A stretch of 64,000 bases of DNA from Candidatus Kapaibacterium sp. (GCA_046328995.1 JAXLVN010000001.1:39477-103476), one strand, 5' to 3'. Counted from the first letter of the stretch, positions 1,225 through 40,745 are shown. Translations and numbers: made by a program. Notes: a model not told the origin generated them from the sequence alone.

Positions 1225-1297
<73 letters not shown>

Positions 1298-4079: not shown

Positions 4080-4397
4080 ATGGTAAATGATATAAAGTTG
4101 ATGGATAAAATCCAATTACAGAAGTATATTTTTCTTCTTGAGTTGTTAATCACAAAGAAAATTGAAACTGATACTTTTGAGAAATATTTCCTGCAAACTA
4201 GAAGACTTGATAGTTATTGGTTAACCGGTTCTTTTGATCCAATAATAGAAAGAGTTCTGAATACATTTTTTTTAGATGTTGACGAGTACAATCCAGAAAA
4301 TCTATATGATCCAAATGATCAGTATAATATTAATGAAAATGAACTTCTAAAACGTGCAGCAATAGTATTTGTGAAGTTGAAAGATATGATAGGTTAA
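4080..4397 (+). CDS. Hypothetical cytoplasmic protein (cassette ORF 4)
   Basis: 105 aa, no signal peptide, acidic; AT-rich; resembles small immunity-type proteins only by size and context. Confidence 0.45.
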   Translation: MVNDIKLMDKIQLQKYIFLLELLITKKIETDTFEKYFLQTRRLDSYWLTGSFDPIIERVLNTFFLDVDEYNPENLYDPNDQYNINENELLKRAAIVFVKLKDMIG

Positions 4398-19674: not shown

Positions 19675-21729
19675 TTATTCGATTGGATTGCTTACCGTAA
19701 TTTCTACGGTACGGTTATACATTCTTCCTTCAGGGATTTCATTCGGATAGATTGACCCCTGCTCGCCGAGTCCTTGAATTGTTACCTTGCCGCTCGGCAC
19801 AAGATTCTTACCTACAGAGGCAGCCCTGTTTTCGGAGAGTGTTTTGTTGGACGACGTATTACCTTTTCTATCGGTCGATCCTTTAACAGCCACCCGAGAC
19901 GCAGAGGTAATGTCTTCACGAATGTATTTATCTAGTATCCGTAGTTGAGATGAGTTGAGTTTGTCGGAATTATAGTCAAACATTATCAACCGGTATTTGT
20001 TCACATCAAGGTTCCCCACGCGGTTGATTTTCTTTTTTTGAATGGTAAGGAGCTCAACAGGCATTGAATTAGAAGCATATCCCGTCGAATCAACTTCATC
20101 ATGAACTACAAAATTATAGTTTATTGGTGATTCATCCTTCGGTATATTTTTATATTTCTTCTGCGTAGTAAAGTCATAATAGGCCGGAGCAGCGCCGCCG
20201 CCTGACTGATTAACGAGTGGAAGTGAGGGTTGACGGGAGGTTAATTTCCAATCTGTAATAGTCAAATCTGCATCCACACCCATGCGATAGCGGATCGTGG
20301 GAGGGTTCGACTCACGCAGCGTGTCGCGCACGACGACAGGATCGGTAATTTCCGGCATGGATGATTCAATTTCAACACGACTGTTTTCCTGATGACCATC
20401 TTCGGCATCGATGGTAGCTTTTGAGTCGAGTGTGGGTAAGTTTTGAGCTTTTATAGTGATTCGATTGTCAGCTATGCCCCAGGTCTGCGTCAGGTAGCTC
20501 TTTACTGTCTCTGCTCTTTTCTTCGATAATGTGGTATTTCCTGCTTCACCGCGTACATTACTGTTGCATCCAATAAGCGTTATTGTCGCATTCGGATAGG
20601 TCAGTAAACGCCTGCCCAGAATATTAAGCAGATGATAATAGACCTCGAGATTCACCGTGGTGATATCATCGGTAGCTGCATTGGTGAAGAGAAACTGACG
20701 TTCAGGGACAAAGTCCGTCGTCTGATTTTTCCTGAGATTCTTGTACCTCACGGGCAGAGCACTTTCATTTTCATCAAAAAACACATACGGCAAGAGAGGA
20801 TATACCTGTTTGCTGAGGGTTTCTTCCACGGTAATCTTAGCGATATCGACCTCTGTGTTGTCGGCATTGAGCTGCTTTGCATGTACTGTAGCAAAGAGGC
20901 GGTGCTTCTTGGGCTGAAGACCTGCTTGAGAAGAGGCAACGGTAGAAGTAAATGCATAGGTCACTGCTACGCCTGCCCGCACTGCATTCATCGTCCATGT
21001 AGATTGTGCCTGACCTGCTGCGGAGAAATCGACCGGTGAACCAAATGGTAGTATATAACTGATTTCCGGGGAAATCTGCCAAGCATTCGAGAGGGAAATG
21101 TCATAATGCAATCCGGCTTCCGCTGCAAATAAAAGACCGGTCGCATTGGCGATATCACCCTCGGAACTGTTACGCTGATTCGTTTTTGTATCCGAATAGA
21201 CGGCACCCGAAGGCGACAAAAGCTGCTCGTACTGTTCGTATTTCGGGGAAAGCGACAGCAGTCCATGAAACGCTACATCCACGCTAAGCGGTGTGGCTTT
21301 GAGGGGATAATACGACAGCCGTGCCGTAATATCCACCATCGAAAGGTTTGCCTTGAGGTAATGTTCGGAAAATGCATCCACGACTTTGGCTGTGCTGCCC
21401 GAACCGGATAATGCATTGCCTATGAACTCTTGATCGCGGAAAATACCGGTAAAACTCGCATATCCTCCGCGGACCTGTAATGCGAGCTGCGTCGTAAGCG
21501 GGAGCTGATATAACAGTCCGAAATAAGGCGTAGTGCCATTGGCTTTGGTATATTGCGGGCAGCAACTGACAGTACCCGGTAAGGAGGCAAAGTCTGCAGT
21601 GTGACTGTTGAACTGTGCACCGCCAAATATTCCAAATCGGGAAGGCGATGCCTCGCTCACCGATTGCTGTGCGTTGAGTACTAGTACGCTTGAGAAGAAT
21701 GTCAAAAGGACAATTAGGTTGTTTTTCAT
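19675..21729 (-). CDS. Outer-membrane protein with N-terminal beta-barrel and two OmpA-like peptidoglycan-binding domains
   Basis: Signal peptide MKNNLIVLLTFFSSVLVLNAQ; OmpA-like segments ATITLIGCNSNVRGEAGNTTLSKKRAETVKSYL and RVAVKGSTDRKGNTSSNKTLSENRAASVGKNL; paralogous to 33989-36166 and 36177-37475. Confidence 0.6.
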   Translation of the reverse strand: MKNNLIVLLTFFSSVLVLNAQQSVSEASPSRFGIFGGAQFNSHTADFASLPGTVSCCPQYTKANGTTPYFGLLYQLPLTTQLALQVRGGYASFTGIFRDQEFIGNALSGSGSTAKVVDAFSEHYLKANLSMVDITARLSYYPLKATPLSVDVAFHGLLSLSPKYEQYEQLLSPSGAVYSDTKTNQRNSSEGDIANATGLLFAAEAGLHYDISLSNAWQISPEISYILPFGSPVDFSAAGQAQSTWTMNAVRAGVAVTYAFTSTVASSQAGLQPKKHRLFATVHAKQLNADNTEVDIAKITVEETLSKQVYPLLPYVFFDENESALPVRYKNLRKNQTTDFVPERQFLFTNAATDDITTVNLEVYYHLLNILGRRLLTYPNATITLIGCNSNVRGEAGNTTLSKKRAETVKSYLTQTWGIADNRITIKAQNLPTLDSKATIDAEDGHQENSRVEIESSMPEITDPVVVRDTLRESNPPTIRYRMGVDADLTITDWKLTSRQPSLPLVNQSGGGAAPAYYDFTTQKKYKNIPKDESPINYNFVVHDEVDSTGYASNSMPVELLTIQKKKINRVGNLDVNKYRLIMFDYNSDKLNSSQLRILDKYIREDITSASRVAVKGSTDRKGNTSSNKTLSENRAASVGKNLVPSGKVTIQGLGEQGSIYPNEIPEGRMYNRTVEITVSNPIE

Positions 21730-21744
21730 AGGGATAAGGTTAAA

Positions 21745-24700
21745 TTATTTTACAATGACTAATTGTTCGGTCGATACGCCTGCAGCCGTCCGCAGCACTA
21801 TATGATACACACCGCTTTCACGGTTCACTATCACCGGATAGGTGGCAATTTCCTCACCGAGAGCGTCTGATTGTTGCCAGATTGTCGAGTATAATTCATC
21901 GCCTAACGCAGAATATACCGACATCCGCACTTCCTCTCCGCCAAAACGCCGCACCGAAATATTCGATAATCCTGTCGTAGGATTGGGTACCATCGCCAAA
22001 ACCTTCGCACCTTGATTGAACGTCAGCAAACGCTTGCTGCCGGTTGGCAGGAGGCACAGTGAATCGAGCGTCAAGAGACCGTTGCTCGTGTCGGGCGATG
22101 CGATACCCGAACCGCACACCCATTCGATATCACTCATAATCAGATCCGTGAATCCGGGGTCGCCGATGAGCGCCGCGCCGGTGATGTTGAGTAAGACATC
22201 GCCTTGGGAAAGCTGCGTGATGGGCGAACACCGAATCGTCAACTTACGAACGATGACACCATTAGAAGTTTCAGTGGAATTTGATATAATAGAAGCACTT
22301 ACACTACTGACCGAACCCTGAGTAATGGTCGGATTCGGGTCAAATAAATTCTCATTATAGCTGAGGGTAAATTGCATTTCCCGGGGTAAACACTGGAGAT
22401 TCGGAGTAAATTCACCAACCACAACCGGTATGGACAATTTCTTATTACGTGGATCAGAGATGAGAGACGGTATGGTAAACGACGCTGAGGGTGCTTCGTC
22501 CTTGCCGACAGTAATCGACGTCATGATGGTCGTCGCGCAGCCGGTGACTTTGTCGGTCACGGTGAGACTATACTGTGACGATGCCTTCGGAGTCACCACA
22601 GGATTGGCAATGGTGGTATCGTTGAAGTTTTGCGCAGGCGAACCGTCCGCAGACGTCCATTTATAGATAAAATCACTCGGATTGCCGGTGACATTCGCCG
22701 TGAGCTGCACGGACTCGCACTCGCAAATCGTTGGTGGAGTGACAGTTACCACAGGGCAAGGATTGACAATCACCGTCGTAGAGTCACTGCTTTCACAGCC
22801 GTTTGCATCGATAATGCGCACACCGAAGGTCGTCGTCGTTGAGAGTGTATTGAGGATCATTACACTCGAATCGACGCCGTTTTCGCGCTGCAGCTCAATT
22901 CCATTCGATGACCAGATGAAGGAATACGGCGCTCTGCCGCGCGTACCGCGAGCCAGGATTTGATTGCCAAATACCGTGCATTCGCAGAGTACACTCGGAT
23001 TAGGAGTAATAACTGACTTCGGATTCTCAAGAGCGACAATCGTAACGGTGCCGGTCGTCGATTTGCTTTGCGCGCCGCCGTCCTGATCTTTCACGGTGAG
23101 GGAGAGGGTATACGTGCCTGCTGACGTTGGGGTAAAGACCGCTTCGGGTTTTTTGGAGTCATTGTGAACCAAAAACGGATTACTTGCCCACGAATACACA
23201 AATTTCTCACCACAAGTCGATGGTTTACCAAGGGTAATACTTGCGCCGGTACAAATTGTATCAGCGTCACCCGGGAAGACATTCGGCACCGGATCGACGC
23301 ATACATCAATAGTATGGAATGCTGTACATCCATTGGCATCGGTCACGGTAGCGGTAAAGGTCGTCGATTCGAGCGGTCGAGCAAAGACCTTTACTCCTTT
23401 TTTCGGGAAATCATTCACCGGCAGACTCGATGTCCACTCGACATCAAGTGGTGGCTGACCGCCAACGACCCCAGCCGAGAGCTCGACAGAGTCAATTCCA
23501 CGGCAAATTTTCTGCGGACACGGCTTGCTCGATGTCGTTGATATCTTCAACGATTGAGATGTTTTGACGGTCACCGTTCCCGTTGCCGGACAGCCGAATT
23601 TATCCCGAACATTCACTGTGTACGTATAGGTTGCATTACTGTCGGGTAAACTAAGCGTAGGATTCGAAATATTTTTCCCGCTCAGTCCAGAGGCAGGGCT
23701 CCAATCATAGACCATTGCGTCAAGGGGCACGCCGCTGATGTTGACACCGATCGTCTGCGGTTTGGCGACGTCGCAGACAATAACCGTTGCATTTTCTACC
23801 GTTGGACAGGGGACGACGGTCACGACAACGGTATCGAAGGCAACTCGCGCCTGACCGTCGGTTACTTTCAGAATGTAGGTCGTCGTTGAAGTTGGCTTGG
23901 CAGTTGTTCGTGCTGTCGTTGTTGACGTAGGATTAGAGAGTCCGGTCGTCGGAGTCCATTCATATGTATAGGGTTGCACGCCGCATTTTGCTTCGCCGCC
24001 AAGCTGCGCGACGGAGGTGGCATCGCAGGCGCAGATGATTTGATCCGCACTTGGCGGGGCATCGGGTACGGGGCGAACTTCGACGATGAGAGTATAGTCA
24101 AACGAACATTTTTTATTTGGGTTGTTGTCAGTGACGGTAAGTACATAACTTGTCGTAATGTCGGGCTTTACCTGTGTTTCGAGGGTCGTCTGCGAACCAG
24201 TTATCGTGCTCGTGCCGCCGCCTGCTTCTTTCCAGGAGAAGCTATAGGGTGGCACACCTCCGGCGATGGTAATTTTATCACCAATAGTCGTCGGCGGACG
24301 ATTAGGTTCGAGACAGCTAACGATAGGATTATCGGCAGCATTGGCGAAGCTTGGCTTGGGAACGACGGTATAAGTAATTGTAGCAGAATCTTGGCATCCG
24401 TTGGCATCGGTCACGGTGAGCTTGTAGGTGTACGTGCCATCGTTGAGAGTAGAAACGACAAGGGTATTCGCCGTTCGACCGCTGAGGATGAGGGAATCTG
24501 AGGATGAATTGAGTGCAAGCCATTGGAAGGTATACGGTGCTTTGCCGTTGGTAATGGTCGGTTTGAGGTTCGACACCTCACCCGAACACCCAAAAACCGT
24601 CGGGAGTTTCGCAATCGATGGAGGAGTAAAGTAATTGACAGTACATGTCTTAGACGCGATACAACCGCTCGCATCCGTGATAGAAAGGCGATAGGAAAAC

Positions 24701-26523
24701 AGTCCGGCAACATCATGTTTGACGACAAGAGAGTCGGTCGCTTTCGATCCTATAACGCCGTCAGCCCCAACGGCAGACCAAGCGTAGGTATAAGGTGCAT
24801 TCCCACCGGAGACGAGAGAGCGTACTTTCAGCACCGAACTCGGGCAACCGGCTACGGAGTCGATAGTTATCGCGATATTCGTGCGTACGTTGACAATGCT
24901 TTCAACCGTGTCAAACGCGCAGCCGTTCTTTTTTTCGAGAATTAAATTCACGCGGAAGCTGCCCGTATCGGGAAACGATTTGAAGACCGTGACATTCGTC
25001 GCATTACTGATGACCTGACCGTCATGAAAAATCCATTTCCATGAAAGGACGGCGGCTGAGTCCGTTGAAAATCCCCGAAACGCCACCTGACCTCCCGGAC
25101 AGACCACCGTATCGTTCTTCGTGCCGTTGATGAATACCTGTTGATTGATATTATTAATACTTGCGCCGGCGATCATGCCGTAGGAATCCACCTGAGCAAG
25201 TCCGTAAATCGTCGCTGTAAAGCTCCCGCCCGGCGGAGAAACGAGAGTGTGATTACCGGGACTCACGCGGAAAGTAGCAACGGTATAATTCACTCCGTCG
25301 ATCGTGAAATTTGCTGAATTTACCGGAACCCTGGTAGATAGATTCGTGCCGTCAAGCTGTGTAGTTGCAAATTGTGAGGTCGGCGCGACGATACCGGTAT
25401 AGAGGTTCTGCGCCCAGCCGGATTGAGTATTTGGCACAAATGCATTGAACGTAATCCGGTCGATGCGCTGCTCAATCGGGGGGATAAGCATCAGAAACGG
25501 ATCACCGACCCCTGCTGTATAGCCAAAGGTCGAAGACATCGAATATATTGCCACCGATACCGGCTGCGAAGCGCTTAACGACAAGGCAGACGTGACGTTG
25601 GGAAGTTCTAAAAAATTCGCATTGGCTGCAATAGTCAATGTCCCCGGAGCGATAGAAGTGGTAATCGTCGTAGGAATAGCAGTATTAGCAGGAATAATCC
25701 GCACGAGCATTTTGGAAGCCGTGGCAAGAAAGGGAAGGATGAAGTTTTTTCCCCAACTGCTGATGGGCATCATTTGTTCGTATAAATGATCAAAACCCGA
25801 ACTTGCGGAATTATTCGGCAAATTCGTGCGCATGGTGCCCGAGAAGACCGCGACTTTGCCGCAGGAGCCGCCACCCGAACCTATCACTCTGATTTTAGAA
25901 CCGGTTAAGTCGCCGTTCGACTGTGCAAAATACACCTGACCTGCATGTAACGTAATTGTGAATGGTACTCCGGTTGGTCGTGGTGTTCCTAGTAATATCG
26001 GCGCAGTAGGAGTGATTTCCACCACAGTGCTAGTGGCGATACTGACGATGGAGAATTGACTGCCGTCACGGTATTGCGTATTATTGGGTGACGAAAACAC
26101 CCGGTATTCATCATCAAGTGTGGCAATAGGTATGATAATCGCTGCATCGGTGCTCGCGGTCAGTGTGTTGAACGCATAGACCGAAATCGGCTTGGTAGCA
26201 CTGATTCTAATCGACTTATTGGTAATAGAATTACTCTCTAATTTCTGCGGAATCACCGGTATGGTATTACCCATGAGAGTTGTCAGATTGACAAAATCAG
26301 CGGTATTTGCCGATAGACTCCTCGTGACGACTGCACCGGTAGGCAATGTAATGGTCACAAACGATGCCTCGTCCGATGAAAAATAGAGCGCAAGCTGACT
26401 CGGTGTGCTGCTGTTCGGCAGGAATGACATGATAAAGTCAGTCCCTTTAGTTGAGAATTTTTGCGCAGAAAGTGAAGACCATCCGAACAAAAATAGTATG
26501 CACAATGCTACTGTTTTTTTCAT
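21745..26523 (-). CDS. Giant SprB-repeat/Ig-like adhesin-like surface protein with T9SS C-terminal sorting domain (1592 aa)
   Basis: Signal peptide MKKTVALCILFLFGWSSLSAQ; many repeats with GGxAPYTYxW and TDANGC/TDASGC (SprB-repeat-like); C-terminal ~90 aa T9SS CTD (…VYHIVLRTAAGVSTEQLVIVK). Confidence 0.6.
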   Translation of the reverse strand: MKKTVALCILFLFGWSSLSAQKFSTKGTDFIMSFLPNSSTPSQLALYFSSDEASFVTITLPTGAVVTRSLSANTADFVNLTTLMGNTIPVIPQKLESNSITNKSIRISATKPISVYAFNTLTASTDAAIIIPIATLDDEYRVFSSPNNTQYRDGSQFSIVSIATSTVVEITPTAPILLGTPRPTGVPFTITLHAGQVYFAQSNGDLTGSKIRVIGSGGGSCGKVAVFSGTMRTNLPNNSASSGFDHLYEQMMPISSWGKNFILPFLATASKMLVRIIPANTAIPTTITTSIAPGTLTIAANANFLELPNVTSALSLSASQPVSVAIYSMSSTFGYTAGVGDPFLMLIPPIEQRIDRITFNAFVPNTQSGWAQNLYTGIVAPTSQFATTQLDGTNLSTRVPVNSANFTIDGVNYTVATFRVSPGNHTLVSPPGGSFTATIYGLAQVDSYGMIAGASINNINQQVFINGTKNDTVVCPGGQVAFRGFSTDSAAVLSWKWIFHDGQVISNATNVTVFKSFPDTGSFRVNLILEKKNGCAFDTVESIVNVRTNIAITIDSVAGCPSSVLKVRSLVSGGNAPYTYAWSAVGADGVIGSKATDSLVVKHDVAGLFSYRLSITDASGCIASKTCTVNYFTPPSIAKLPTVFGCSGEVSNLKPTITNGKAPYTFQWLALNSSSDSLILSGRTANTLVVSTLNDGTYTYKLTVTDANGCQDSATITYTVVPKPSFANAADNPIVSCLEPNRPPTTIGDKITIAGGVPPYSFSWKEAGGGTSTITGSQTTLETQVKPDITTSYVLTVTDNNPNKKCSFDYTLIVEVRPVPDAPPSADQIICACDATSVAQLGGEAKCGVQPYTYEWTPTTGLSNPTSTTTARTTAKPTSTTTYILKVTDGQARVAFDTVVVTVVPCPTVENATVIVCDVAKPQTIGVNISGVPLDAMVYDWSPASGLSGKNISNPTLSLPDSNATYTYTVNVRDKFGCPATGTVTVKTSQSLKISTTSSKPCPQKICRGIDSVELSAGVVGGQPPLDVEWTSSLPVNDFPKKGVKVFARPLESTTFTATVTDANGCTAFHTIDVCVDPVPNVFPGDADTICTGASITLGKPSTCGEKFVYSWASNPFLVHNDSKKPEAVFTPTSAGTYTLSLTVKDQDGGAQSKSTTGTVTIVALENPKSVITPNPSVLCECTVFGNQILARGTRGRAPYSFIWSSNGIELQRENGVDSSVMILNTLSTTTTFGVRIIDANGCESSDSTTVIVNPCPVVTVTPPTICECESVQLTANVTGNPSDFIYKWTSADGSPAQNFNDTTIANPVVTPKASSQYSLTVTDKVTGCATTIMTSITVGKDEAPSASFTIPSLISDPRNKKLSIPVVVGEFTPNLQCLPREMQFTLSYNENLFDPNPTITQGSVSSVSASIISNSTETSNGVIVRKLTIRCSPITQLSQGDVLLNITGAALIGDPGFTDLIMSDIEWVCGSGIASPDTSNGLLTLDSLCLLPTGSKRLLTFNQGAKVLAMVPNPTTGLSNISVRRFGGEEVRMSVYSALGDELYSTIWQQSDALGEEIATYPVIVNRESGVYHIVLRTAAGVSTEQLVIVK

Positions 26524-26547
26524 AGAACTACATATAAAATAAAAAAA

Positions 26548-29500
26548 TTACTTTACTATTGACAATTTATGTGTGGTTACGTTATACCCCGTTTTCATCA
26601 CCAGATAATACGTTCCGTTTTCAATCGAAGAATTATCGAATTTCAGTATATGATCGCCTGACGGAAGGAACGGATACACGACTTCATCATGTACTCTGCC
26701 GAAAATATCGAGCAGGGTCACTGTACATGCACCTGCAATGCCGATCGAGAGGGAGACGGTGGTCGTTCCGCCACTCGGATTCGGCGCTACCTGTTTTATG
26801 ACATCGGGGGTTGCAAAGCGAATCAATTGTGATGTGCCGCCATCTTTACAGACTTTGATATACACAATACTATCGCGGCAGGCGGGGAACACCTTGCCAT
26901 TGGCATCGGTCCAGATGAATGCCGTCGAGTCGTTGAAGATCAGACTCGTCGAGTCAACATCTGCAAGCTTGACGAGAAACATCAGCGTATCGAGCCGTGG
27001 GTTACCCTGAAAACGGCGCTTTTCCTGCACGTTGAGCGACCAGTAATTGGTGCGTTTGGAGTCCTCGTCATTATACTGTCTGCTGCGCGGCAGCCATTGG
27101 AGCACACGGGAGTCATATTGCATATTTGCGATAAATTTTGTGGCTTTGCTTGCCTGTGGCTGCTCGTCTTTTATCCGTAAATAGACCTGCAGGGTGTCGC
27201 CCGGACTCACCGACAGGGCATTCGGTACCAGTTCAATTTCGGTGATGACCCCGTCCGAAGGGAGGGCAATTCCTTCACCGCTGATGCTGCCTCGTATAAT
27301 TTCCCGGCCGGAATACACGAGGATATCATCGGTAAAGACACCGATTGCTGATGGCGTGAAGTCGATGTTAAAGCTAACCGTTACGCCGGGCGGTATCAGT
27401 CGCGGAAGTGCGTTTTTCTTGAGCGAAAAGACGGTATTTTTGACGATAATAGAGTCGATGATGCGGTCTATGGTACCATCGTTGAGCACTTTGATGGAAT
27501 TGCGAAGCGGGGCATTTCGACCGATGATATTGCTGACGACCTGCTGACCGAAATTCAAGTCAAACACGACGATTTTGGAGGTGTTGACCACTTTGACAAA
27601 CGTAAATGCCGGAGAAGTAGCTGAGCAACCGTTGATCGTACCGCGCACGGAGTATGTACCGTCCGCAGGCGGCGCATACTTCTGCGACGTTGCACCCGTG
27701 ATCGGCGTTCCGTCACTTGCCAGCCATTGATATGTGTCGGCCGGCGTTGCTATAAGTTCATTGCCCGCTTGTGATATAGCAATGCTTGGCGTGGGGTTTA
27801 CGGTGATTTTGATACTGTCGGAACTGCCGACACATCCGTTACTGTCGATGGAACAGAAATACACACCGCTTGTTTTGACCCACAATGTCGCACCAATCGA
27901 GCCGGTTGACCATAGCGGTGCGCCGGAATACGTAGCTTCATTCAGCACCTCGATAAGCGCGCTGTCCCCCTGACAAATGGTCGTACCACCCTTGGCGAGC
28001 AGCTTCGGCGTTGGTCGGTTTTTAATGAATATATCCACGAGAGCGGTATCTCTTTGAGATTTACTGTCTGTGACAATTACTCTGTAGGTGACGGTCGAAG
28101 AAGGAGATACGCTGATGGTAGAATCCGTCGGTGTACCACCGTTGCGAATGTCGGATGGTGTAATGACAGAACCGTCTTTATTCCTCCATGCGAATTGAAA
28201 CGGGGGAGTACCACCGGTTACTTTCACCGTGAGAAGAGTATCGGTAAACCGGCACATAGAGACGCTAGGTGAAGTAAACGAAGCACGAACGCCCGGCTTG
28301 GAGGCAATACCTTCGCCGCGCATGGTCGAAACGATTGTATCGCCGGCTATCGTAACCCATTTCATGGTATCGGCATACACTGATACCGCCGTCGGTATAA
28401 AAGAGATATTGATAAGGGTATCTTTGCCGGCCGGGATCACACGCTTCGCAGTATCCTGTGTGGAAAACGGATCGCCTTGGGTGTTTTGAAGTAATGTCAG
28501 TGCCAGCGGAACTTTACCCGTATTGGTAAGGGTGATATCTTTGGCGTTGTTTGTATTTGTATCAGTTTTCCCAAAATCAAGGGTCGTTGAGATTCCTTTG
28601 GGAATGGATATGGCGAAGAGAGCGTCAGAAGTATCCGACGTCGCGGTGGTGACCTTCGTAAATAGTTGTATGATTCCATTATGTGCTACACCGTTAAAAG
28701 AATTGAACAGACCATATACAATTACTCCGTAATCGTTATTGAGTACTGAGCCTAAAGTATTTGCATTAAAACCTGATCCTTTTGTGAATTCCGGATCGTA
28801 TTTGCCGTCAGGAAATACCCGCACGAAATTCGACACGGGAGAATTGTCATACGAAGTAAAGCTACCGGAAATATAAATTTTACCATCATTTTGTGATGTA
28901 GTACCGTACGCTTTGTTTGATGCATTATCAAAGAGTGAAACGAACGAAGAATCGACAGAACCGTCGGATAGTAAGCGAACGATGTTGATACTCTTAAATC
29001 CATCGTAACCGAATATACCACCACTGTACAGAATTTTCTTATCAGATTGGAGGCTAGCGTATTGAATCCATCCATCAAAACCGGATTTAGTTTTGTAGGT
29101 TGTATCATTGACTCCGTTCGGCAGAAGTTTAAACCCGTTTTTAAATGCACTTCCATTATAGGAAACTCTATTTCCTGCCAGATAGATGAAGTCATCATCG
29201 ATAATCGATGCGTCAACAGTAGAACTAAATCCTGAGCCGGATTGAAATGTATTGTCCAAAGTTCCATCCGGTAAGAGACGGGCTATCCGATTCGCTGTCT
29301 TCGTTCCAAATTTTGTAAACTGACCGATGATAACAATTTTACCGTCAGATTGGAGGCCCATTGAATTGATCTGTTCATCGACACCTTCATTAACGGCAAA
29401 AGTTGGATCGAGTGAACCGTCAAGATTAAGGCGTACCAAACCATGGACGCTTGTTGAATTATAGGTAGTAAAATTACCGGCAACCAAGAGCTTGCCGTCT

Positions 29501-31785: not shown

Positions 31786-31830
31786 AATAGGTTATGATAG
31801 AAATAAGGAGAGTCAAATATTCTCAGTATG

Positions 31831-32727: not shown

Positions 32728-33983
32728 CGTTTTTTCTTTCTTCCTTTCCGAGAAGGCCGAGGAGCGATCACGGGTGGATGCGCTCCCGAAGGCAGCTCTT
32801 GTTGTGAAGTACTGCGTTTTTTTTGTTTTGAATACTTTCTCGCTGCTAATGCACTGGCATATATCTGATATCCATCGGCGGCAAGCGCGACCGATAAGGT
32901 CGCAAGTGCGCTGTCGAAATGATATCGGAAATAATCGAAACAGACAATGACCAAAAAGAGAAGCAAGATAATGGTAGTAATCTGCAATGTCTTTGAAATC
33001 AAGTCATAGTAGTTGGGGAATTTGTCGTCGATGAGCGTAAACAGGAGGATAACAATCCAACAAAACGCCCACGATACCACGACATTGACCGCCGTGCTCA
33101 TGGAGTTCACGTAGTCCCGATGTATTATCATCGACAAAACATTAGCATGAATTTCTACTCCAAACATATCAGGAAATGACTTACCTGCATAGCGCTTGTT
33201 CACGGGTGTGAAATACCGGTCATCATATGAATTCCGATCGTTTAAATGTTCGCCGAGGTAGCCGAAGAGAACAATTTTACCCGTCATAAAGTCAATGCTG
33301 ATACTCGTATCGAGCACCTGAGGGAAATCGACCCGTACAAATGAATTAAGTTTTTGATAATTAATTGATTCCGTTTGATTATTCCTCTCGCGGAGATACG
33401 CCACATCCTCGGGCGATATCAGCGCTGCAATCTGTACGGCGAATGCACAATGCTCTTGCGTGCCGACGTTTTCAAAAGGCGTCACCGTCCGAATAGTACG
33501 ATACGTACCGACGGCAGAGGGGAAATTAACATACCCCGATTTTTTGGGACGTAATGAATCATGGGTGATACCCGGAATTGAGCCCACGGGGCTATCCTCC
33601 TCCCGTGTCAGCTGCTCAGCAAGCACAATATTGTCGTAGTCGTTGAACGTACGTACAAGACTCATCGTCTCCTCGGGGGACACGTCCCGTAAAAACATCG
33701 CATCGACGGCCGCAAGTTTCGGTCGGATGGACATCACCCGCCGAATGACGGCTGCAATTTCTGATCGGTTGAGAGCACCGATATTGACAATCACGATATT
33801 GGTGTCAATACGTTTCGGTGCCTCGTCCAAGAGCTGAGAATACACAATATCCGTCAGCTCAAAATCCTTGAATGCCTGCTGCAATGGATCAAAAAAATCC
33901 GAATTAATCGGCAGGGAATTAATGACAAAGAGCACCCCGAAAATAAGTGTCGTCAACAGCGCGCTATGAAAGATACGATTCAT
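32724..33983 (-). CDS. CHASE2 domain-containing membrane protein without cytoplasmic output domain
   Basis: N-terminal TM, then CHASE2-like conserved blocks (IVIVNIG, AAVDAMF, IVLAEQL, KIVLFGYLGE, FGVEIHANVLSMII), then 3 C-terminal TM helices and only a short basic tail (SRKGRKKKR). Confidence 0.6.
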   Translation of the reverse strand: MNRIFHSALLTTLIFGVLFVINSLPINSDFFDPLQQAFKDFELTDIVYSQLLDEAPKRIDTNIVIVNIGALNRSEIAAVIRRVMSIRPKLAAVDAMFLRDVSPEETMSLVRTFNDYDNIVLAEQLTREEDSPVGSIPGITHDSLRPKKSGYVNFPSAVGTYRTIRTVTPFENVGTQEHCAFAVQIAALISPEDVAYLRERNNQTESINYQKLNSFVRVDFPQVLDTSISIDFMTGKIVLFGYLGEHLNDRNSYDDRYFTPVNKRYAGKSFPDMFGVEIHANVLSMIIHRDYVNSMSTAVNVVVSWAFCWIVILLFTLIDDKFPNYYDLISKTLQITTIILLLFLVIVCFDYFRYHFDSALATLSVALAADGYQIYASALAARKYSKQKKRSTSQQELPSGAHPPVIAPRPSRKGRKKKR

Positions 33984-33988
33984 AGAAG

Positions 33989-36166
33989 TTACTTACGGTT
34001 ATCGGTTTCGATAATAATACGTACGATCCGATTATAAAACCGTCCCTCGGGGAGGTCATTTTTGTACGTCTCGGATATGCCGTCACCCCGTACTTCACTA
34101 ATATTCTCTTTTGGCAGCAGGGCAGCGATACTTTCGGCACGTTTGAGCGAAAGTGCTTTGTTGTATTCCTGACTGCCGATATTATCGGTATAGCCGACTA
34201 TCCGCACGACAGATTGAGAGGTTATTCTTTTTGACACTTCGGCAATTGTCTGCCTGCTGATGGCACTGAGCTCGGTACTGTTGATATCGAAGAGCAGAAC
34301 ATCAACGATATCCACATATTTATCCGGAATTTTTTGACGTTCTTTCTCTTCCGGCGAGACCTGCTTTACCTTTAAATTCAGCGTCGTCGCCGTGCGTGGG
34401 ATCACCCCTTTGGCATTCGAGACGACAAAATCATAATACAAATCACCTTGAGAGATCGGCAGGTTCGCGATCGATTTCCATGAAAAATCGAACGTATGAG
34501 GCACGATGTCGTTGAAGTTTTCTTTTTTGATAAATAATTGAGAATTCTGACCTTCCGCCGATTGCTTGAGTTCAAAATACCCTCCGGTCAGCGCAAAGGG
34601 AGACTTCACGGTCGAATAATATGTCAGGCGCTCCGGCTCGACTTCACGGTCAAGTTCTATTGTCGCAATAGGATCAAATAAAGACTGCTCATCGCTCATC
34701 AGCTCGACTCTCCGATTTTCCTGGCGGGCTTTTTCTTCTGTGGTACTACCATTTATCGACGCGGGCTTGGGAGGGAGTTCGCCGGCTACGACCACGAGCC
34801 GTTCATCCGGAATCTTCCAGGTATCCTGAAAGTATTTTTTGACAATGAGTGCCCTGTCATTGGCAATTTCTTTCCCGTTCGGCTCGATGCCGTCGGTATA
34901 TCCTGCAATCGTCAGCACAGCATTCGGCTTTTGCGTCAAGCGTTTACCGACAATATTGAGCACGTCGTTATAGAGTGCCAGAGGTTTGGACTTGACTTTG
35001 GCGACCGTCTTTTCAATCTTATACTGATCGCGAAGAGTGGGGTCGATAAATGAATAAGCATCCGATATTTCACTGGCCGACGGGAAGTAAAAGATATAGG
35101 GCAGTATGGGTTTAAGAATAGTTTTTCTGAATTGCTGCACCGTAATTTCAAGTCCCGGATACGAGCGTCGTGTGCCATTGGAATAGACACCAACCACACT
35201 GTCAATTTCGGCAAGGGTGACCGTCGAGATACATTCGCATTTGTTGGTCGTCGGATTCATTTTCAGCTGTTGGTCATCTTTGCAGAGCAGTACTGGCACA
35301 CAATCATTTCCCTCTAATACCGGTAGATAGCACTGAGGGCAATTATTCTCGGCAAAGACCGTAGGCGTCACCGAGTACCGAAGCGATAGGCCGGCATAGA
35401 GTCCGCTCATTTTCCAGGTACCGTTATCCCGCAGACCGGACGATACATCCGTAATGCCGAATGAATAGAAGAGTTCCGGAGTGAGCAACGTGCTGCCATT
35501 GAGATTAGCAGCAATATCATAGCTCAGGCCGAGAATACCGGATAGTTGGAGTGCATTCAGTGCAGGGAGCGTACCTTGAGTGGTATTTCTTTCTTTGGAA
35601 TAAATGCCCTCGGCAGCGTTATAAAAATACGCATTCGAAGGATTGGAGACGGTTTCACTCTGGCGGTAGCTGCTGTAGAAGATGTAGTCTGTCTTTACCC
35701 CGCCCATGATGGAGAATCGATTGGTAATACGATATCCCGGCATGGCAAGTAGGGTAGCATTGGCAATTTTTGCCGATATAGCATACTCAAATGCTCCGGT
35801 AACAGCCAGATTACCATTGCTGTTATCATTAAAAATCGTCGTATGCGTTTGGCGAAGCGTCGCACCGTGGTACTGAATGCCGAGGCGTGCATCAAGGATC
35901 CATTTATTATCGCTCGAGAGTGGAAAGACGAGGAGTCCGCCGGCTGCAAAACCTATTCCGGACTGTGATGCCGCATCGCTGAAGTTATCCGGGCAGCAAA
36001 AGGCTATATCATTAAATTTTGCAAAATTCGCATGATGTATGTCAAGACCACCCTGAGCATATACTCCATAGCGTAAGTACTGTAGGGTATCCGTCTTGGG
36101 AGCAGTCTGAGCGTTGAGATGGAGGACACATACGAGAAATGCCGACACAAGTACCAATAATTTCAT
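33989..36166 (-). CDS. Outer-membrane protein with beta-barrel and two OmpA-like domains
   Basis: Start moved to MKLLVLVSAFLVCVLHLNAQ (36166), which removes overlap with upstream gene; OmpA-like blocks AVLTIAGYTDGIEPNGKEIANDRALIVKKYF and VRIVGYTDNIGSQEYNKALSLKRAESIAALL. Confidence 0.6.
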   Translation of the reverse strand: MKLLVLVSAFLVCVLHLNAQTAPKTDTLQYLRYGVYAQGGLDIHHANFAKFNDIAFCCPDNFSDAASQSGIGFAAGGLLVFPLSSDNKWILDARLGIQYHGATLRQTHTTIFNDNSNGNLAVTGAFEYAISAKIANATLLAMPGYRITNRFSIMGGVKTDYIFYSSYRQSETVSNPSNAYFYNAAEGIYSKERNTTQGTLPALNALQLSGILGLSYDIAANLNGSTLLTPELFYSFGITDVSSGLRDNGTWKMSGLYAGLSLRYSVTPTVFAENNCPQCYLPVLEGNDCVPVLLCKDDQQLKMNPTTNKCECISTVTLAEIDSVVGVYSNGTRRSYPGLEITVQQFRKTILKPILPYIFYFPSASEISDAYSFIDPTLRDQYKIEKTVAKVKSKPLALYNDVLNIVGKRLTQKPNAVLTIAGYTDGIEPNGKEIANDRALIVKKYFQDTWKIPDERLVVVAGELPPKPASINGSTTEEKARQENRRVELMSDEQSLFDPIATIELDREVEPERLTYYSTVKSPFALTGGYFELKQSAEGQNSQLFIKKENFNDIVPHTFDFSWKSIANLPISQGDLYYDFVVSNAKGVIPRTATTLNLKVKQVSPEEKERQKIPDKYVDIVDVLLFDINSTELSAISRQTIAEVSKRITSQSVVRIVGYTDNIGSQEYNKALSLKRAESIAALLPKENISEVRGDGISETYKNDLPEGRFYNRIVRIIIETDNRK

Positions 36167-36176
36167 AGAGTTCTTT

Positions 36177-37475
36177 CTATCTGTTACTAATAGAATTTTC
36201 AATTTCAATTTGAACAGTACGGCAGTACATTCGAGATTCGGGTGTTTTCCATTCGTCTTTGAAGAGGTCTTTTTCGCCATTGCCAATGCTCCGAATATGG
36301 TCTTGCTGAATGATACCTTTAAATCGTTCGATGACATAGGCCATAATATTCTCGGCCCGTGCTACCGAACGCAGGCGATTGCGTTCATCATCACCAATTT
36401 CATCGGCATAGCCATTAATCGTCACCTTCGAGCTCGGCAGCAGGCGGCCTTTTTCATATATAATTTCAATAATTTTCCGGTGATAATCCGTAAGAAGATT
36501 CGAATTGAAATCGAAAAGTATGAGGTTGAATCGATGGAGTTCTTTCCCGGCAATTTTCAGAGTTTTTTTCTTAAACAATGTCTGCTGCTCTACTTGAATA
36601 TTACTGACGGCGCTTACTTGTTGTCGGTTCGTATTATCGGTGGTATAGAGTCTGAACTCTATTTGCTGTTCGGTCTTCGGTTGATGTTCCACATCTTCTT
36701 CTATATTCCAGAGATACATCGGCGGCAGATCGGTGCCTTCGCGTCTGAAAAGCAGGCTGTCCTCTGTGAGCTGCCATGCTTTCAAATCATGGCGTACAAT
36801 ACGTTCACGCTGATCGCAATCGATCTGGAATTCTATCATCGGCGGCGTCATGCGTATCTGTACATCACGGATTTCGACCGGACGGAGTATTTTCCAGTCC
36901 GCGACGAGCTCGACGCGTCTGTTCTCCGTATACGAGGCCTCTGTATATTCCGACTGTGCCGTAATAGACGGCTTTTCCGGCAGGCCGCGGGCACGTATGA
37001 CCAAGCGTGCTGAATCGATACCCCAAACAGTAAGAAAATACGTACGAATCGATTGTGCCCGAAGTAGGGCGATGGTGTCGAGTTCCATACCATCGGTACA
37101 CCCGATAATCTGCATCGTATCGAGTGGATTGTCGCGTAGTCTCTTGCCGACGATATTGAGAATGTACCGGTAGGCGTACAGTGGGGTAATGGATTGAGGA
37201 AGGTTGTTTTCATTGAAATACTTAGCTTCAGCAGGAGTTAACTTTTTATACCTGCCTACCTGCAGATCGACTGAGTCTTTTTCAAAAAAAATATACGGCA
37301 GGAGAGGCAAGAGGGTAATTGCTTCCACTTCTTCACGGAGCACGGTAATAACGGGTTCTCGGTTACCTTTTTCATCCACTCCGACAGCCGAAACTCTTGC
37401 ATCTGTCTGAGATACAAGCAGTGGAGGAAGCGCGCAGGAGAGTAGCAAGGCAATCGTAGTACAAAATCTAATCAT
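36177..37475 (-). CDS. OmpA-family lipoprotein with two OmpA-like domains
   Basis: Start at MIRFCTTIALLLSCA (lipobox LLSC); OmpA-like blocks MQIIGCTDGMELDTIALLRAQSIRTYF and VTINGYADEIGDDERNRLRSVARAENIMAYV. Confidence 0.6.
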   Translation of the reverse strand: MIRFCTTIALLLSCALPPLLVSQTDARVSAVGVDEKGNREPVITVLREEVEAITLLPLLPYIFFEKDSVDLQVGRYKKLTPAEAKYFNENNLPQSITPLYAYRYILNIVGKRLRDNPLDTMQIIGCTDGMELDTIALLRAQSIRTYFLTVWGIDSARLVIRARGLPEKPSITAQSEYTEASYTENRRVELVADWKILRPVEIRDVQIRMTPPMIEFQIDCDQRERIVRHDLKAWQLTEDSLLFRREGTDLPPMYLWNIEEDVEHQPKTEQQIEFRLYTTDNTNRQQVSAVSNIQVEQQTLFKKKTLKIAGKELHRFNLILFDFNSNLLTDYHRKIIEIIYEKGRLLPSSKVTINGYADEIGDDERNRLRSVARAENIMAYVIERFKGIIQQDHIRSIGNGEKDLFKDEWKTPESRMYCRTVQIEIENSISNR

Positions 37476-37491
37476 AGGCCTGATTATTTTA

Positions 37492-40400
37492 CTATAACTG
37501 TGTAAGAATAAACCCATCTGTATCATCCGAGCGGAATATCGGGGTCTGATTAATCTGCAATTCCGTTTTTAATTTTTTGACCCGTTTTTGTATGTAGTCC
37601 TGAAGACTCGTCAGAGAAATCTGCCGGTCTTCGAGCGAGGCGGCTCGCCCGTTGAGCCCCTCAAGCAGTGCTGTCGTAAAAATTCCGTGCTGCAGACTAT
37701 CGACCTCTCGGGCAAATTGACTGCTAAGAGCCGATGACATCAGGTAAACACCTGAATTTCTTGGTAATTGACGTAAGAATTTGGTGGCTCCGGACTGTTC
37801 CTCAGCAAGCGTTGTCGTCAATGCACCCGCGTGGCAGGCATCGAGTATGAGTGCTTTCTTTTCACATTTAATATTCAAAAACAGTGCTTGAAGGCGACGA
37901 GTGGAAAGTCCGGATTGTCGCAAAAGATTCTCCGCTGACATCGACTCAATTTCATGAGTAATGAGATAGAAATCCTGATTGGTACCTGCGGTCGTCAGAG
38001 CGCCATGTCCGGCAAAATAAAAGATAAACCGGTCATTGGGCCGGATGACGGTAGCGACTTCCACAAATGCTGCTACAATGGAGGTGACGGTCGCCTGTTC
38101 ATTCATCAGCTGACGAACCGTGACCGTCGAATACTCGCTCTGTGAGAATTTATTCTTGAGGGTCAACGAAAGGCTTTTCGCATCATTCTCGGCATACTTG
38201 AGGTTATACGAATTGTTTTTGTACGTACTTACCCCGACAGCGATGACATAGAGGTTCGGCTTGGATTCTACGCGCTGATTCGACAATACCGATAGTGTAT
38301 CGGAATACTCAACTCCGTCAGCAGATACGCAGACGACTCTCAGCAAATTCTTACCGGGAAAGAGATGTATGGGGACGGTTTGAAAGTCGCGTACCCGGCT
38401 CCGTTCAATCGTCAACTGCGGGCTACCATTGTTGCTGATACGAATGCTGTAGATGGTGTCTTCGATATTGGTAAGTTCGAACGTCAGTAAAAGTTCTTCT
38501 GTATCAAATATCCGTGCAATCGCCGGCGAGAGAATACGAATGGTGGGGATTTTTTTGCTGCTTGCAAGAGTGACCATCGCAGCAGGAGCGTCAGCCCGAG
38601 CGCCGAGGCACCGGGAGAGAATTCCCGGCTTCTCAAGTACTGAAATGTAATTTTCCAGAGGTAAGGAATGGTTGTCTCGGACGATATTCACAGCCCCTAC
38701 GCCAGAAGACGAAGCATCAAAATAGCCTTCCGGCGAGACGGCAATCCATTGTCCTCGACCGATAGTAACGAGCTTGATAACGGGTAGTAGGTTGGCCGGG
38801 TCCATGAGAACGCAAGTGCCGACATTATTGATGGTGGCTATGTAATTGTTCAACGGGACGATATCGACATCCCACACATTCGTAAAGGTAGCCGAAGACA
38901 CTCGTACCGGTTTGCCGTCAGAGGACCAAAGACGTGTGGAGTTGTCCTTGCTGCAACTGACAAGCAGGCGGCGACGGGGAGAGCCCGGATCGTGGATCCA
39001 TCGAAGTTTATTAACTCGGTCAGTATGCCCGACACAGCGTTGCTCAATAGAATGTATACTATTCGAGCGGATACCGATATCACCGTTCGAATAGCCGATG
39101 GCAAGCGAATTTGACGTTGTATCCCATTGGCAGGTCGTGATGGATCGGTCATTGGAAGATACACTGTCAAGGAGGGATAGGGTGCTCGTATTCCATTGAT
39201 AAATCATATGTTTGTCAGTCGTTATCACCCACCGGGATGATACACTGAGTGACAGCTGAGGCGACGTGGTATGTATCTGAAGGAGCAGCTGCCGGGTATC
39301 AGCATTCCACATATTCATCGTGCCGTTGGCATGGAGCGATATAAATCGATTTGTTCCGGGGATGAATTCTAGGGCGGTCACTGCAGAAAGAGAGGTCCCA
39401 AGGGGAAGAAGACTATCCTGGGTCAAGAGCAGTACCGAAGCATTCGATGAACCAATGCCGATGGCAAGGATGTCACCGGCAGAATTATACGAAAGGTGAT
39501 AGCCGGCACCGCTTTTCTCCGGTAACGGATAATAACCGCATGTACCACTAAGATAATCCCACACCCATACGTCATAGTTCTGATTTAATGTAGCCAATGA
39601 ATGTGCGCCTGCGGCTACTGCACGAGGTATCGAATTACTTCCTGATGGCGTCGGTAGTTCACGCATCCCGGCACGCGAGAGCCATTGCAGCTTCCCGGTT
39701 CGGGTACCGACGACCATATTTCCACTTTCAATTGCAATGGCACAGGTAGCTGTTTGGTTGGAAAACGAACTCCGGCGACGTGTTAATGGATCTACTGAAA
39801 TGACAGTACCTTGGTTAGATACTATGCTGAAAATTTTCTCTTCGGCATTGAATGTCGCAGTGAGTAGTTTGCCAAGCTGAAGCGGTTTCCACGGTTCGTC
39901 AGTTGCGTCCTGACGCGAGATGGAAATCCTGCCGATCATGCCTGCTTCATCAATCCATACGAGAGTTTGATCGTCGAGTCGTCCGATGGACATTATTTTG
40001 GAGGAACTGACAGAATGGATCCTGAGGGTACGTTTGGTGGGAATATCAAGCACTATTATTTCACCTGCACTCGTGCCGCATGCAAGGTGCTGCCAGCTGT
40101 CATATCCGAGCATCGCACTGACGTCACCTCCTGCACGAGGTATGTCTATCGTCGAGCTTTCGCGGAGTGTCTTGGTTGCATCAAAAAAATGGATCGATTT
40201 TTCTCGTTCCAGGGCCACGGCAACGGAATTCTGATAGGGGTCATCGCTATAGGTAACTGCAACGACATTTTCACCGACCGGAGCTGAGCTTTCGAGTTCA
40301 CCGGTGAATAAATTCCATAACATTACAGTGCCGTCACGGCTCCCGCTCACGAGATTTTTACCTTCGGGCTGAATCCCGATAGCAGTGACATTATGATGAT

Positions 40401-40701
40401 GACCTTGTAAAATATGGAGCAATCGACCGAATTCCTGCCCGGAATTCGAACTCCAAACACGGATAAGATTATCATTACTCGCAGTAATGACCTGATGCGT
40501 AAGTGCCGAGTGAAGGATTGCGGTAATCGTTGAGGTGTGGTCTGATTGTACGACTACTTTGAACGTACTCTCCTGTGCAGACCCTGTAGTGCCTACTGTG
40601 AGCAGCAGAAGCAGCAGACTAGCTACCCAGACTGAGAATGTACATTCTGAGTGATAAGTAAATTTATGTGGACGAACTCTCAAAATGTAACGTAAACTCA
40701 T
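37492..40701 (-). CDS. Secreted WD40-repeat protein fused to C-terminal caspase-family (peptidase C14 / CHAT-like, clan CD) protease domain
   Basis: Signal peptide …SLLLLLLTVGTTGSAQ; WD40-like units (NLIRVWSSNSGQ, GSRDGTVMLWNLFTGE, SCSKDNSTRLWSSDGKPV); C-terminal caspase signature with His in RFIFYFAGHGAL and Cys in KALILDACHAGAL, preceded by YVIAVGVSTYKN...YAENDA. Confidence 0.65.
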   Translation of the reverse strand: MSLRYILRVRPHKFTYHSECTFSVWVASLLLLLLTVGTTGSAQESTFKVVVQSDHTSTITAILHSALTHQVITASNDNLIRVWSSNSGQEFGRLLHILQGHHHNVTAIGIQPEGKNLVSGSRDGTVMLWNLFTGELESSAPVGENVVAVTYSDDPYQNSVAVALEREKSIHFFDATKTLRESSTIDIPRAGGDVSAMLGYDSWQHLACGTSAGEIIVLDIPTKRTLRIHSVSSSKIMSIGRLDDQTLVWIDEAGMIGRISISRQDATDEPWKPLQLGKLLTATFNAEEKIFSIVSNQGTVISVDPLTRRRSSFSNQTATCAIAIESGNMVVGTRTGKLQWLSRAGMRELPTPSGSNSIPRAVAAGAHSLATLNQNYDVWVWDYLSGTCGYYPLPEKSGAGYHLSYNSAGDILAIGIGSSNASVLLLTQDSLLPLGTSLSAVTALEFIPGTNRFISLHANGTMNMWNADTRQLLLQIHTTSPQLSLSVSSRWVITTDKHMIYQWNTSTLSLLDSVSSNDRSITTCQWDTTSNSLAIGYSNGDIGIRSNSIHSIEQRCVGHTDRVNKLRWIHDPGSPRRRLLVSCSKDNSTRLWSSDGKPVRVSSATFTNVWDVDIVPLNNYIATINNVGTCVLMDPANLLPVIKLVTIGRGQWIAVSPEGYFDASSSGVGAVNIVRDNHSLPLENYISVLEKPGILSRCLGARADAPAAMVTLASSKKIPTIRILSPAIARIFDTEELLLTFELTNIEDTIYSIRISNNGSPQLTIERSRVRDFQTVPIHLFPGKNLLRVVCVSADGVEYSDTLSVLSNQRVESKPNLYVIAVGVSTYKNNSYNLKYAENDAKSLSLTLKNKFSQSEYSTVTVRQLMNEQATVTSIVAAFVEVATVIRPNDRFIFYFAGHGALTTAGTNQDFYLITHEIESMSAENLLRQSGLSTRRLQALFLNIKCEKKALILDACHAGALTTTLAEEQSGATKFLRQLPRNSGVYLMSSALSSQFAREVDSLQHGIFTTALLEGLNGRAASLEDRQISLTSLQDYIQKRVKKLKTELQINQTPIFRSDDTDGFILTQL

Positions 40702-40731
40702 GCAAAATAATCAATAAATGGAATTATACAT

Positions 40732-40745
40732 GAACGTGCACGTTC
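40732..40745. promoter_or_regulatory. Perfect 14-bp palindrome GAACGTGCACGTTC in promoter region of the caspase-WD40 gene cluster
   Basis: gaacgtg|cacgttc, centred ~38 bp upstream of the 40701 start codon (minus strand). Confidence 0.35.

Follow-up and report, generated by a model that had tools for sequence, protein, structure and literature searches.

CHASE2 is a common sensor domain, and its ligand is unknown in most cases. In other proteins, as is generally known, it is fused to kinases and cyclases, which indicates a role in signalling (PMC13001267). In Magnetospirillum, the gene for a CHASE2 adenylate cyclase lies next to that for MtxA (MGR_0208), a secreted protein of ~313 amino acids (aa) described as "without homologues" (PMC4439547). 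Genomic island 15 of Psychroflexus torquis encodes four WD40-metacaspases, several putatively secreted products and a CHASE2 family protein (PMC3914696). WD40 is the commonest accessory domain of bacterial metacaspases, and OmpA domains have been recorded in 14 metacaspase operons (PMC3501461). Here we describe a block of eight envelope genes, G1 to G8, in a 64,000-nucleotide stretch of Candidatus Kapaibacterium sp. (GCA_046328995.1, JAXLVN010000001.1:39477-103476; hereafter the window), an organism that the NCBI taxonomy places in Bacteroidota, family Kapaibacteriaceae. The block contains genes for a WD40-caspase (G1), three OmpA-like proteins (G2, G3 and G8), a CHASE2 protein without an output domain (G4), a secreted MtxA-like protein (G5) and two giant proteins related to the type IX secretion system (T9SS; G6 and G7). 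The reading that we prefer, with a probability of roughly 40%, is that the eight genes are a real envelope block, conserved among Kapaibacteriaceae-like bacteria and built around an old and widespread two-gene core in which a periplasmic CHASE2/MtxA-like receptor has exported proteolysis as its output.

The core pairs a CHASE2 protein that lost or never had an output domain with a secreted MtxA-like protein of ~300 aa, and the two genes are often translationally coupled. In the window, they are G4 (32724-33983, minus strand, 419 aa) and G5 (31831-32727, minus strand, 298 aa), the start of G5 overlapping the stop of G4 by 4 bp. G4 matches the Pfam CHASE2 model PF05226 with 67.3 bits against a cutoff of 26.3, and neither Pfam nor NCBIfam detects a further domain in it, including any cytoplasmic transmitter of the kinase, cyclase or GGDEF/EAL type. 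The protein is laid out as a first transmembrane (TM) helix, a periplasmic alpha/beta domain, three TM helices and a basic tail of ~30 aa. Its AlphaFold2 model, with a predicted local distance difference test score (pLDDT) of 79, has helices at residues 2-23, 297-321, 323-352 and 359-394. The periplasmic domain covers residues ~45-295, and the polar residues D45, N67, D94, D255, N262, D272, H279 and N281 are invariant, which makes them candidates for a ligand or metal site. A Foldseek search with the CHASE2 model returned nothing significant (all E > 0.9), and no solved CHASE2 structure turned up in PDB searches.

G5 consists of a signal peptide, an N-terminal beta domain, a flexible linker, an Ig-like domain and two TPR repeats. 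It has no family match in Pfam or NCBIfam, and its structural model best matches MtxA (PDB 4Z29). As modelled, it is a secreted protein of ~300 aa with a predicted Ig-like and TPR fold at its C-terminal end, and it has size, export, domain order and genomic partner in common with MtxA. Only 9 proteins came back when the G5 family alignment was used in a word-indexed homologue search; an exhaustive search of representative proteins revealed the family, with 4377 members at E <= 1e-3, many of them full-length at 300-350 aa. The family is therefore large, but it is unnamed. The giant proteins in that search carry only the Ig-like middle domain of G5 (residues ~127-212), repeated 5-32 times in tandem, and reach lengths of 6486 aa. 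A profile of the N-terminal domain of G5 found nothing in the PDB. A FecR-like or DUF928-like identity for G5 was also considered and rejected, as 6 full-length members and 20 N-terminal domains gave no such Pfam match at E values of up to 5-10.

The pairing extends well beyond the window. An alignment-based scan for CHASE2, using one genome per GTDB species, yielded more than 597 relatives, and the best 80 loci all came from Bacteroidota, Ignavibacteria, Chlorobiota or Kapaibacteria. For the survey set of 84 non-redundant loci, ORFs (open reading frames) were called and searched with hidden Markov models built iteratively from the window proteins. A G5-like gene adjoins the CHASE2 gene in 79 of the 84 loci; in 76 of these 79 it lies downstream and co-directional, and in 73 of the 79 the gap is at most 150 bp. 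The initial annotation had listed G5 simply as a small secreted protein: the secretion holds, but its standing as a near-obligate partner of CHASE2 had been overlooked. Among the 5 loci lacking a G5-like gene, 2 end before one could appear. Gaps computed from longest-ORF starts come to -4 in 11 loci, a different measure from the overlap in the window, which by the same formula is -5; several loci do show the overlap of the window's type, in which the G5-like start lies three bases before the last base of the CHASE2 stop. The surveyed CHASE2 ORFs encode 390-586 aa (median 416), a length that leaves no room for an output domain, so these proteins, too, lack one. A bare pair is present in cultivated Cytophagales (Fulvivirga, Marinoscillum, Marivirga, Hymenobacter and Flammeovirga), which are therefore candidate organisms for studying the function of the CHASE2 partner.

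Ten loci have a second G5-like gene, mostly in Cyclobacteriaceae and other Cytophagales (e.g. L018, L024, L034, L053, L066, L068, L084 and L085). The two copies are directly in tandem in most of the ten; in the Saprospiraceae locus L045 they lie one ORF apart.

Caspase-fold proteases are encoded near the pair in 17 of the 84 loci (20%). The link between CHASE2 proteins and such proteases, which the initial annotation gave as known, recurs independently in other lineages. Seven loci, from Kapaibacterium-like bacteria, Saprospiraceae, Ignavibacteriaceae and a Bacteroidia metagenome-assembled genome (MAG), have a C14 caspase gene at most 6 kb from the pair, and the architectures include two WD40-caspases in Saprospiraceae, an Ig-caspase in Ignavibacteriaceae and a caspase-DUF4384 protein in the Bacteroidia MAG. 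In 10 loci, TPR-CHAT genes lie within 4 kb of the pair; the lineages are Hymenobacter, Imperialibacter, Cyclobacteriaceae, Salibacteraceae, Crocinitomicaceae, Catalimonadaceae and an unclassified Bacteroidota MAG. Gene order, orientation and protease architecture vary among loci and families. A clear N-terminal signal-like hydrophobic segment is present in 15 of 16 sampled proteases, the N-terminus of the longest ORF for the CHAT protein in L013 being unclear. This recurrent, architecture-independent linkage is our main argument, and it suggests that exported cysteine proteases act with the pair.

Bacterial caspase homologues have mostly been discussed as cytoplasmic cell-death or defence enzymes. 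The protease of the window, G1 (37492-40701, minus strand, 1069 aa), is an exported protein with an N-terminal hydrophobic signal visible in its sequence, two WD40 beta-propellers, an Ig-like linker domain and a C-terminal Peptidase_C14 domain. Pfam assigns residues 820-1059 to PF00656 (Peptidase_C14) with 60.7 bits against a cutoff of 21.4, and scores the WD40 region at 70 bits. The predicted catalytic dyad is intact, with His899 in the motif FAGHG and Cys956 in DACHAG. Since a search of PDB sequences with the caspase domain gave 0 matches, the dyad was checked by alignment instead: both residues are kept in all aligned segments that span the two motifs (7 caspase sequences), and 3 more segments are partial domains. 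On the strength of the model match and the His-Cys dyad, G1 is a predicted member of the Peptidase C14 family, in keeping with its first assignment.

Other neighbours of the pair follow patterns of their own. An Ignavibacteriaceae cluster (L065:9968-19448; also L070, L072 and L083) has the order CHASE2, an S9 peptidase (present in one locus), the G5-like gene, a papain-like C1 peptidase, an ORF of ~160 aa without family matches and an Ig-domain caspase. In L083, the papain-like peptidase shows a weak, sub-threshold match to DUF4384, and in L065 a gene for a protein with a T9SS C-terminal domain (CTD) follows the caspase gene. NfeD and SPFH proteins form a membrane-scaffold pair often linked to membrane proteolysis. 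Co-directional genes for a short NfeD protein and an SPFH/Band-7 protein follow the CHASE2/G5 pair in L010 (10001-13806), which represents another Ignavibacteria/Kapaibacteria pattern; equally sized ORFs (short, and ~325 aa) occupy these positions in L014, L049 and L058, the domains having been scanned in L010 only.

In the Kapaibacterium clade, the pair is embedded in a larger unit. G1 to G8 lie on the minus strand and span 19675-40701 of the window, and the gaps recomputed from ORF coordinates, from G1 to G8, are 16, 10, 5, -4, 45, 24 and 15 bp. These values exactly reproduce those of the initial annotation, as do the number and common orientation of the genes. The downstream end at 19675 likewise stands, whereas the start, first placed at 40745, has to be moved to 40701, because an in-frame TGA at 40711-40713 lies just upstream of the G1 ATG at 40701. 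Every product has a predicted signal peptide, lipobox or TM helices, as read from the sequence and, for G4, from the AlphaFold2 model. The order G1-G2-G3-G4-G5-G6(-G7) recurs in four more Kapaibacteriaceae-like contigs, so the arrangement is more than chance and the synteny expected for a real cluster is present. CHASE2 identity to the window is 77% in L088, 71-73% in L001, 64% in L090 and 58% in L002. The comparison covers G1-G7, as the related loci end before the position of G8, and a metagenome scan with G8 gave one irrelevant fragment. Upstream of G1 the contigs differ, a TrmB setting contrasting with one of Amidase_3 and a tRNA-U5-methyltransferase; as the gene order is kept while these upstream genes change, the block behaves like a single unit. 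The highest identities are those of G2 and G3 (67-85%); divergence has been quicker in G1 (40-63% in the four related contigs), G6 (34-60%) and G7 (57-69%).

Operons whose genes are functionally coupled typically show spacing of this kind, with gaps of 5-16 bp and an overlap of 4 bp. From the minimal gaps and the G4/G5 overlap we infer that the cluster is probably co-transcribed. Scans of G1-G8 for promoters and terminators speak neither for nor against this. Terminator-like sites numbered 18 against 18.7 in shuffled sequences, as expected by chance, with 0 within the intergenic gaps. Promoter-like sites of the sigma-70 type, whose consensus may not apply to this phylum, numbered 45 between 18500 and 38400, against 29.4 in shuffles (standard deviation 5.1), and 10 between 38400 and 43200, against 7.6 and thus near chance; they gave no signal inside the gaps of the cluster. 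The Bacteroidetes -7 motif TAnnTTTG occurred 49 times against 43, again at chance level, with 0 in the gaps.

The three OmpA-like genes are paralogues whose products align over a shared double OmpA-like module of ~400 aa; the domain list of the initial annotation was largely confirmed by Pfam and NCBIfam, and this module in G2 is one of two points at which it needed amending. G2 (36177-37475, minus strand, 432 aa) is a lipoprotein with the lipobox LLSC and is the best-conserved gene of the cluster, at 77-85% identity in the four related contigs. G3 (33989-36166, minus strand, 725 aa) combines an outer-membrane beta-barrel matched by Pfam OMP_b-brl_2 with two OmpA domains, and its orthologues are 67-79% identical. 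G8 (19675-21729, minus strand, 684 aa) also has two OmpA domains, and its N-terminal barrel-like region aligns with the barrel of G3, yet has no Pfam barrel match. The scores for PF00691 are 51.1 (G2), 70.4 (G3) and 69.1 bits (G8) against a cutoff of 27.2. The C-terminal OmpA domains show the motifs TD.xG...N..LS..RA and NR.VE; with this conserved D...R peptidoglycan-binding motif, all three are OmpA-like proteins predicted to bind peptidoglycan. In the Ignavibacteria MAG GCA_016720145, the G2 orthologue (L001:6510-7808) was called as two genes, of 143 and 224 aa. It aligns as one product of 430 aa with 81% identity, which makes a frameshift, an assembly error or a pseudogene likely.

G6 (26548-31785, minus strand, 1745 aa) is a predicted T9SS cargo protein with a type A CTD, and carries an Asp-box propeller, with six Asp-box motifs readable in the sequence, delta-60/DUF5122 repeats and choice-of-anchor D Ig domains. 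Its CTD scores 26.2 bits for TIGR04183 (cutoff 23, hence above) and 22.2 for PF18962 (cutoff 27, hence below). G7 (21745-26523, minus strand, 1592 aa) has a probable, marginal T9SS CTD, with 22.2 bits for TIGR04183 and 20.7 for PF18962, below both cutoffs. Its dominant N-terminal domain is IgGFc_binding (PF17517, 162.8 bits), the second amendment to the domain list, and is accompanied by PKD and SprB-type repeats. A G6 orthologue holds the same position in L001, L002, L088 and L090, and a G7 orthologue follows it in L001 and L002; the G6 protein of L002 contains Omp28 and lacks the delta-60 repeats. T9SS cargo genes are common in such genomes, with three in the window alone. Genes for T9SS-CTD proteins directly flank the CHASE2/G5 pair in 7 of the 84 loci, from four or five lineages, against a background of ~1-2% of other ORFs, a weak enrichment in cargo-rich genomes.

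On the reading that we prefer, the periplasmic CHASE2 domain and the MtxA-like G5 would form a receptor or scaffold in the periplasm. Since G4 has no cytoplasmic transmitter, the output would be extracytoplasmic, and may be that an exported caspase-fold cysteine protease, here G1, is regulated in its activity, its tethering or its access to substrates; the physical interactions, the direction of control and the substrates are those that we infer. Three OmpA-like paralogues, one a lipoprotein and two barrels, would have been added in this lineage and, by analogy with the outer-membrane barrel NsrA discussed below, probably connect the apparatus with the outer membrane and with peptidoglycan. 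The two giant T9SS proteins would also have been added, as candidate substrates or co-expressed cargo. Several observations weigh against this scheme. The pair stands alone among housekeeping genes, with no protease neighbour, in ~80% of the loci, so a neighbouring protease cannot be needed for its basic function. Confidence in the structural model of G5 is medium (pLDDT 73, from 8 sequences); the full G5 profile reaches MtxA only marginally (E = 0.065 over 122-289), and a profile restricted to the Ig-like stretch, or to the N-terminal domain, does not match MtxA at all. With sequence support this marginal, we call G5 MtxA-like and not an MtxA homologue. Furthermore, the linkage of OmpA-like and T9SS genes to the pair is found in one clade of modest divergence, where shared descent could explain it. 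A more far-reaching version of our reading would make output-less CHASE2 proteins and their MtxA-like partners a widespread and so far unrecognised class of extracytoplasmic signalling systems, read out not by a second messenger or phosphorelay in the cytoplasm but through regulated periplasmic proteolysis by exported C14/CHAT and sometimes papain-like enzymes, and wired in Kapaibacteriaceae to peptidoglycan-anchored OmpA-like proteins so as to control or process T9SS giants; we regard this as doubtful.

In a simpler explanation, the pair has an envelope function of its own, and the caspase and OmpA genes and the T9SS giants are merely co-located, perhaps co-transcribed, in a single lineage. 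It would account for the solitary pairs that make up most loci and for the scarcity of T9SS-CTD genes as immediate neighbours in genomes where cargo genes are common. It also fits the confinement to the Kapaibacterium clade, among the 84 loci, both of OmpA-like genes that are adjacent to the pair and co-directional with it and of G6/G7 genes beside the pair. It fits less well with the association of proteases and pair in at least 6 unrelated families, among which both the gene order and the type of protease vary, with the integrity of G1-G7 next to differing flanks, or with the tight spacing of the genes (5-16 bp gaps and the 4-bp overlap). We consider it quite possible, but do not favour it.

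The initial annotation had proposed a module acting on, or controlled by, the T9SS giants. In its specific form, G1 would be a dedicated processing or attachment peptidase for G6 and G7, a counterpart of the clan-CD sortase PorU, and CHASE2/G5 and the OmpA-like proteins would regulate or anchor it. As is generally known, PorU (family C25) and caspases have the clan CD fold in common. G6 and G7 follow G5 at gaps of 45 and 24 bp, as they do in all related contigs that are long enough, and the T9SS-CTD gene behind the caspase gene in Ignavibacteriaceae L065 points the same way. However, outside the clade the pair and its proteases usually have no adjacent T9SS cargo, and G6 and G7 evolve fast and change domain content, as in the L002 G6 protein. 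In addition, G1 has no T9SS CTD and would consequently act in the periplasm, before the cargo reach the surface. Given the weak T9SS-CTD enrichment near the pair, processing of G6/G7 by the caspase rests on clade-level synteny alone, and the proposed action on the giants, with the OmpA-like genes and the two giant T9SS genes found beside the pair in only one family-level clade, is speculation from synteny. We therefore think this explanation unlikely.

Caspase-fold proteases act in several bacterial defence systems, and the block might accordingly be read as an envelope-level suicide or anti-phage module, with the caspase as an executioner released on envelope damage or infection. The caspase domain of G1 is indeed nearest to the NCBIfam type "caspase, EACC1-associated type" (NF047832), at 87 bits, and in a PADLOC scan that left out G6 and G7 it gave weak single-model matches to "caspase" (E = 5.7e-12) and HEAT-ARM_XIII. 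But the NF047832 score lies below the cutoff of 140, and Pfam and NCBIfam find no NTPase, EACC, gasdermin or effector domain in any of the eight proteins. Among the scanned genes PADLOC matched no defence system, the only other hits being weak ZorB/MotB-type matches for G3 and G8, and the flanking genes are housekeeping. G1, moreover, is exported, whereas known defence caspases and CHAT proteases are cytoplasmic. We consider such a role very improbable. Least credible of all is a transporter-like or translocon-accessory role for the output-less CHASE2 protein in the export or assembly of large envelope proteins, as the alignment on which it would rest covers ~1/4 of the protein and is probably that of a helical bundle, Foldseek gave nothing significant, G4 has four TM helices against the six of RND-type repeats, and the kinase and cyclase fusions of CHASE2 cited at the outset (PMC13001267) indicate signalling.

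The genes on either side of the cluster are housekeeping genes. Downstream of G8 lie a crotonase gene (18847-19638) and an SBBP/T9SS gene (16311-18773), with a biotin carrier gene on the same side, as identified by Pfam and NCBIfam; the other flank carries genes for TrmB, a HipA_2-like kinase, an O-methyltransferase and TamB. The HipA_2-like kinase gene (41474-42322; PF20613, E = 2.3e-14) is located upstream of the cluster, with the O-methyltransferase gene on one side and the TrmB gene on the other; L088 has it too, and L001 lacks it at that position. Elsewhere in the window, a tRNA gene (1225-1297, plus strand) is followed by a low-GC stretch to ~6000 (GC 0.34-0.37 against ~0.47 elsewhere), whose small ORFs have no family matches except 4080-4397 (plus strand), which encodes a colicin-like immunity protein (PF09204, E = 4.9e-13). 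The stretch resembles a small island beside a tRNA gene that holds orphan immunity genes.

The block was first compared with a cyanobacterial arrangement of CHAT, CHASE2 and two-partner-secretion genes. No two-partner-secretion partner is encoded in the cluster, as Pfam and NCBIfam detect no ShlB, POTRA or haemagglutinin domain in any of the eight proteins, and a literature search, swamped by unrelated matches, gave no paper on the cyanobacterial arrangement. Closer likenesses come from other quarters. In Burkholderia and Pseudomonas aeruginosa, a LysM-FecR protein and a CHASE2 histidine kinase form the "BiofilmReg" operon (PMC5192318), and a cluster in Nostoc punctiforme combines WD40, CHASE2 and DUF928 (PMC5587647). 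In both settings a CHASE2 gene stands beside a gene for a periplasmic signal-peptide protein, and the Nostoc neighbours include WD40 proteins; the Burkholderia LysM-FecR partner binds peptidoglycan, which may parallel the OmpA-like proteins here. However, the Burkholderia CHASE2 protein carries a kinase output together with a response regulator, unlike G4, and G5 matches neither the FecR nor the DUF928 models. The CHASE2 cyclases CyaD1, CyaD2 and CyaK of Sinorhizobium meliloti sense a protein signal, the plant uL2, via the outer-membrane barrel NsrA (PMC13001267). The association of CHASE2 with outer-membrane barrels, G3 and G8 in our case, would be similar, compared by type only; the output of the Sinorhizobium enzymes is cAMP, whereas G4 has no output.

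Seen against the systems described at the outset, the novelty first claimed for the block applies to the eight-gene combination, which is new and confined to one lineage; its parts are less so. OmpA in metacaspase operons (PMC3501461), WD40-metacaspases with CHASE2 (PMC3914696) and MtxA beside a CHASE2 cyclase (PMC4439547) are already documented. The metacaspase survey reported neither a CHASE2/MtxA-like pair nor T9SS cargo in those operons (PMC3501461), and three paralogues sharing the double OmpA-like module are a peculiarity of the Kapaibacterium clade, unlike the surveyed operons. The P. torquis island resembles G1-G8 in being a Bacteroidota cluster with WD40-metacaspases and CHASE2, known from genome annotation only; it differs in its 35-kb size, its LytTR regulator and its flanking transposases, and no OmpA-like trio or T9SS giants have been reported from it. 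Because the OmpA-like/T9SS operon is confined to one poorly studied lineage, it matters less generally than two further findings. One, new and broader in scope, is that output-less CHASE2 genes are almost always paired with MtxA-like genes throughout the Bacteroidota/Chlorobiota group; the other, also new, is the repeated recruitment of exported caspase-fold proteases to this pair. The Magnetospirillum CHASE2 partner has a cyclase as its output, and its gene comes after mtxA, whereas here the output is missing and G5 follows CHASE2; the sequence similarity of MtxA and G5 is not significant, and no relationship is detectable between their N-terminal domains. Judged solely by structure and gene context, MtxA nevertheless gains its first relatives outside magnetotactic bacteria, and the CHASE2 and MtxA-like pair becomes a simple, testable unit for which exported caspase-fold proteases are suggested as one output.

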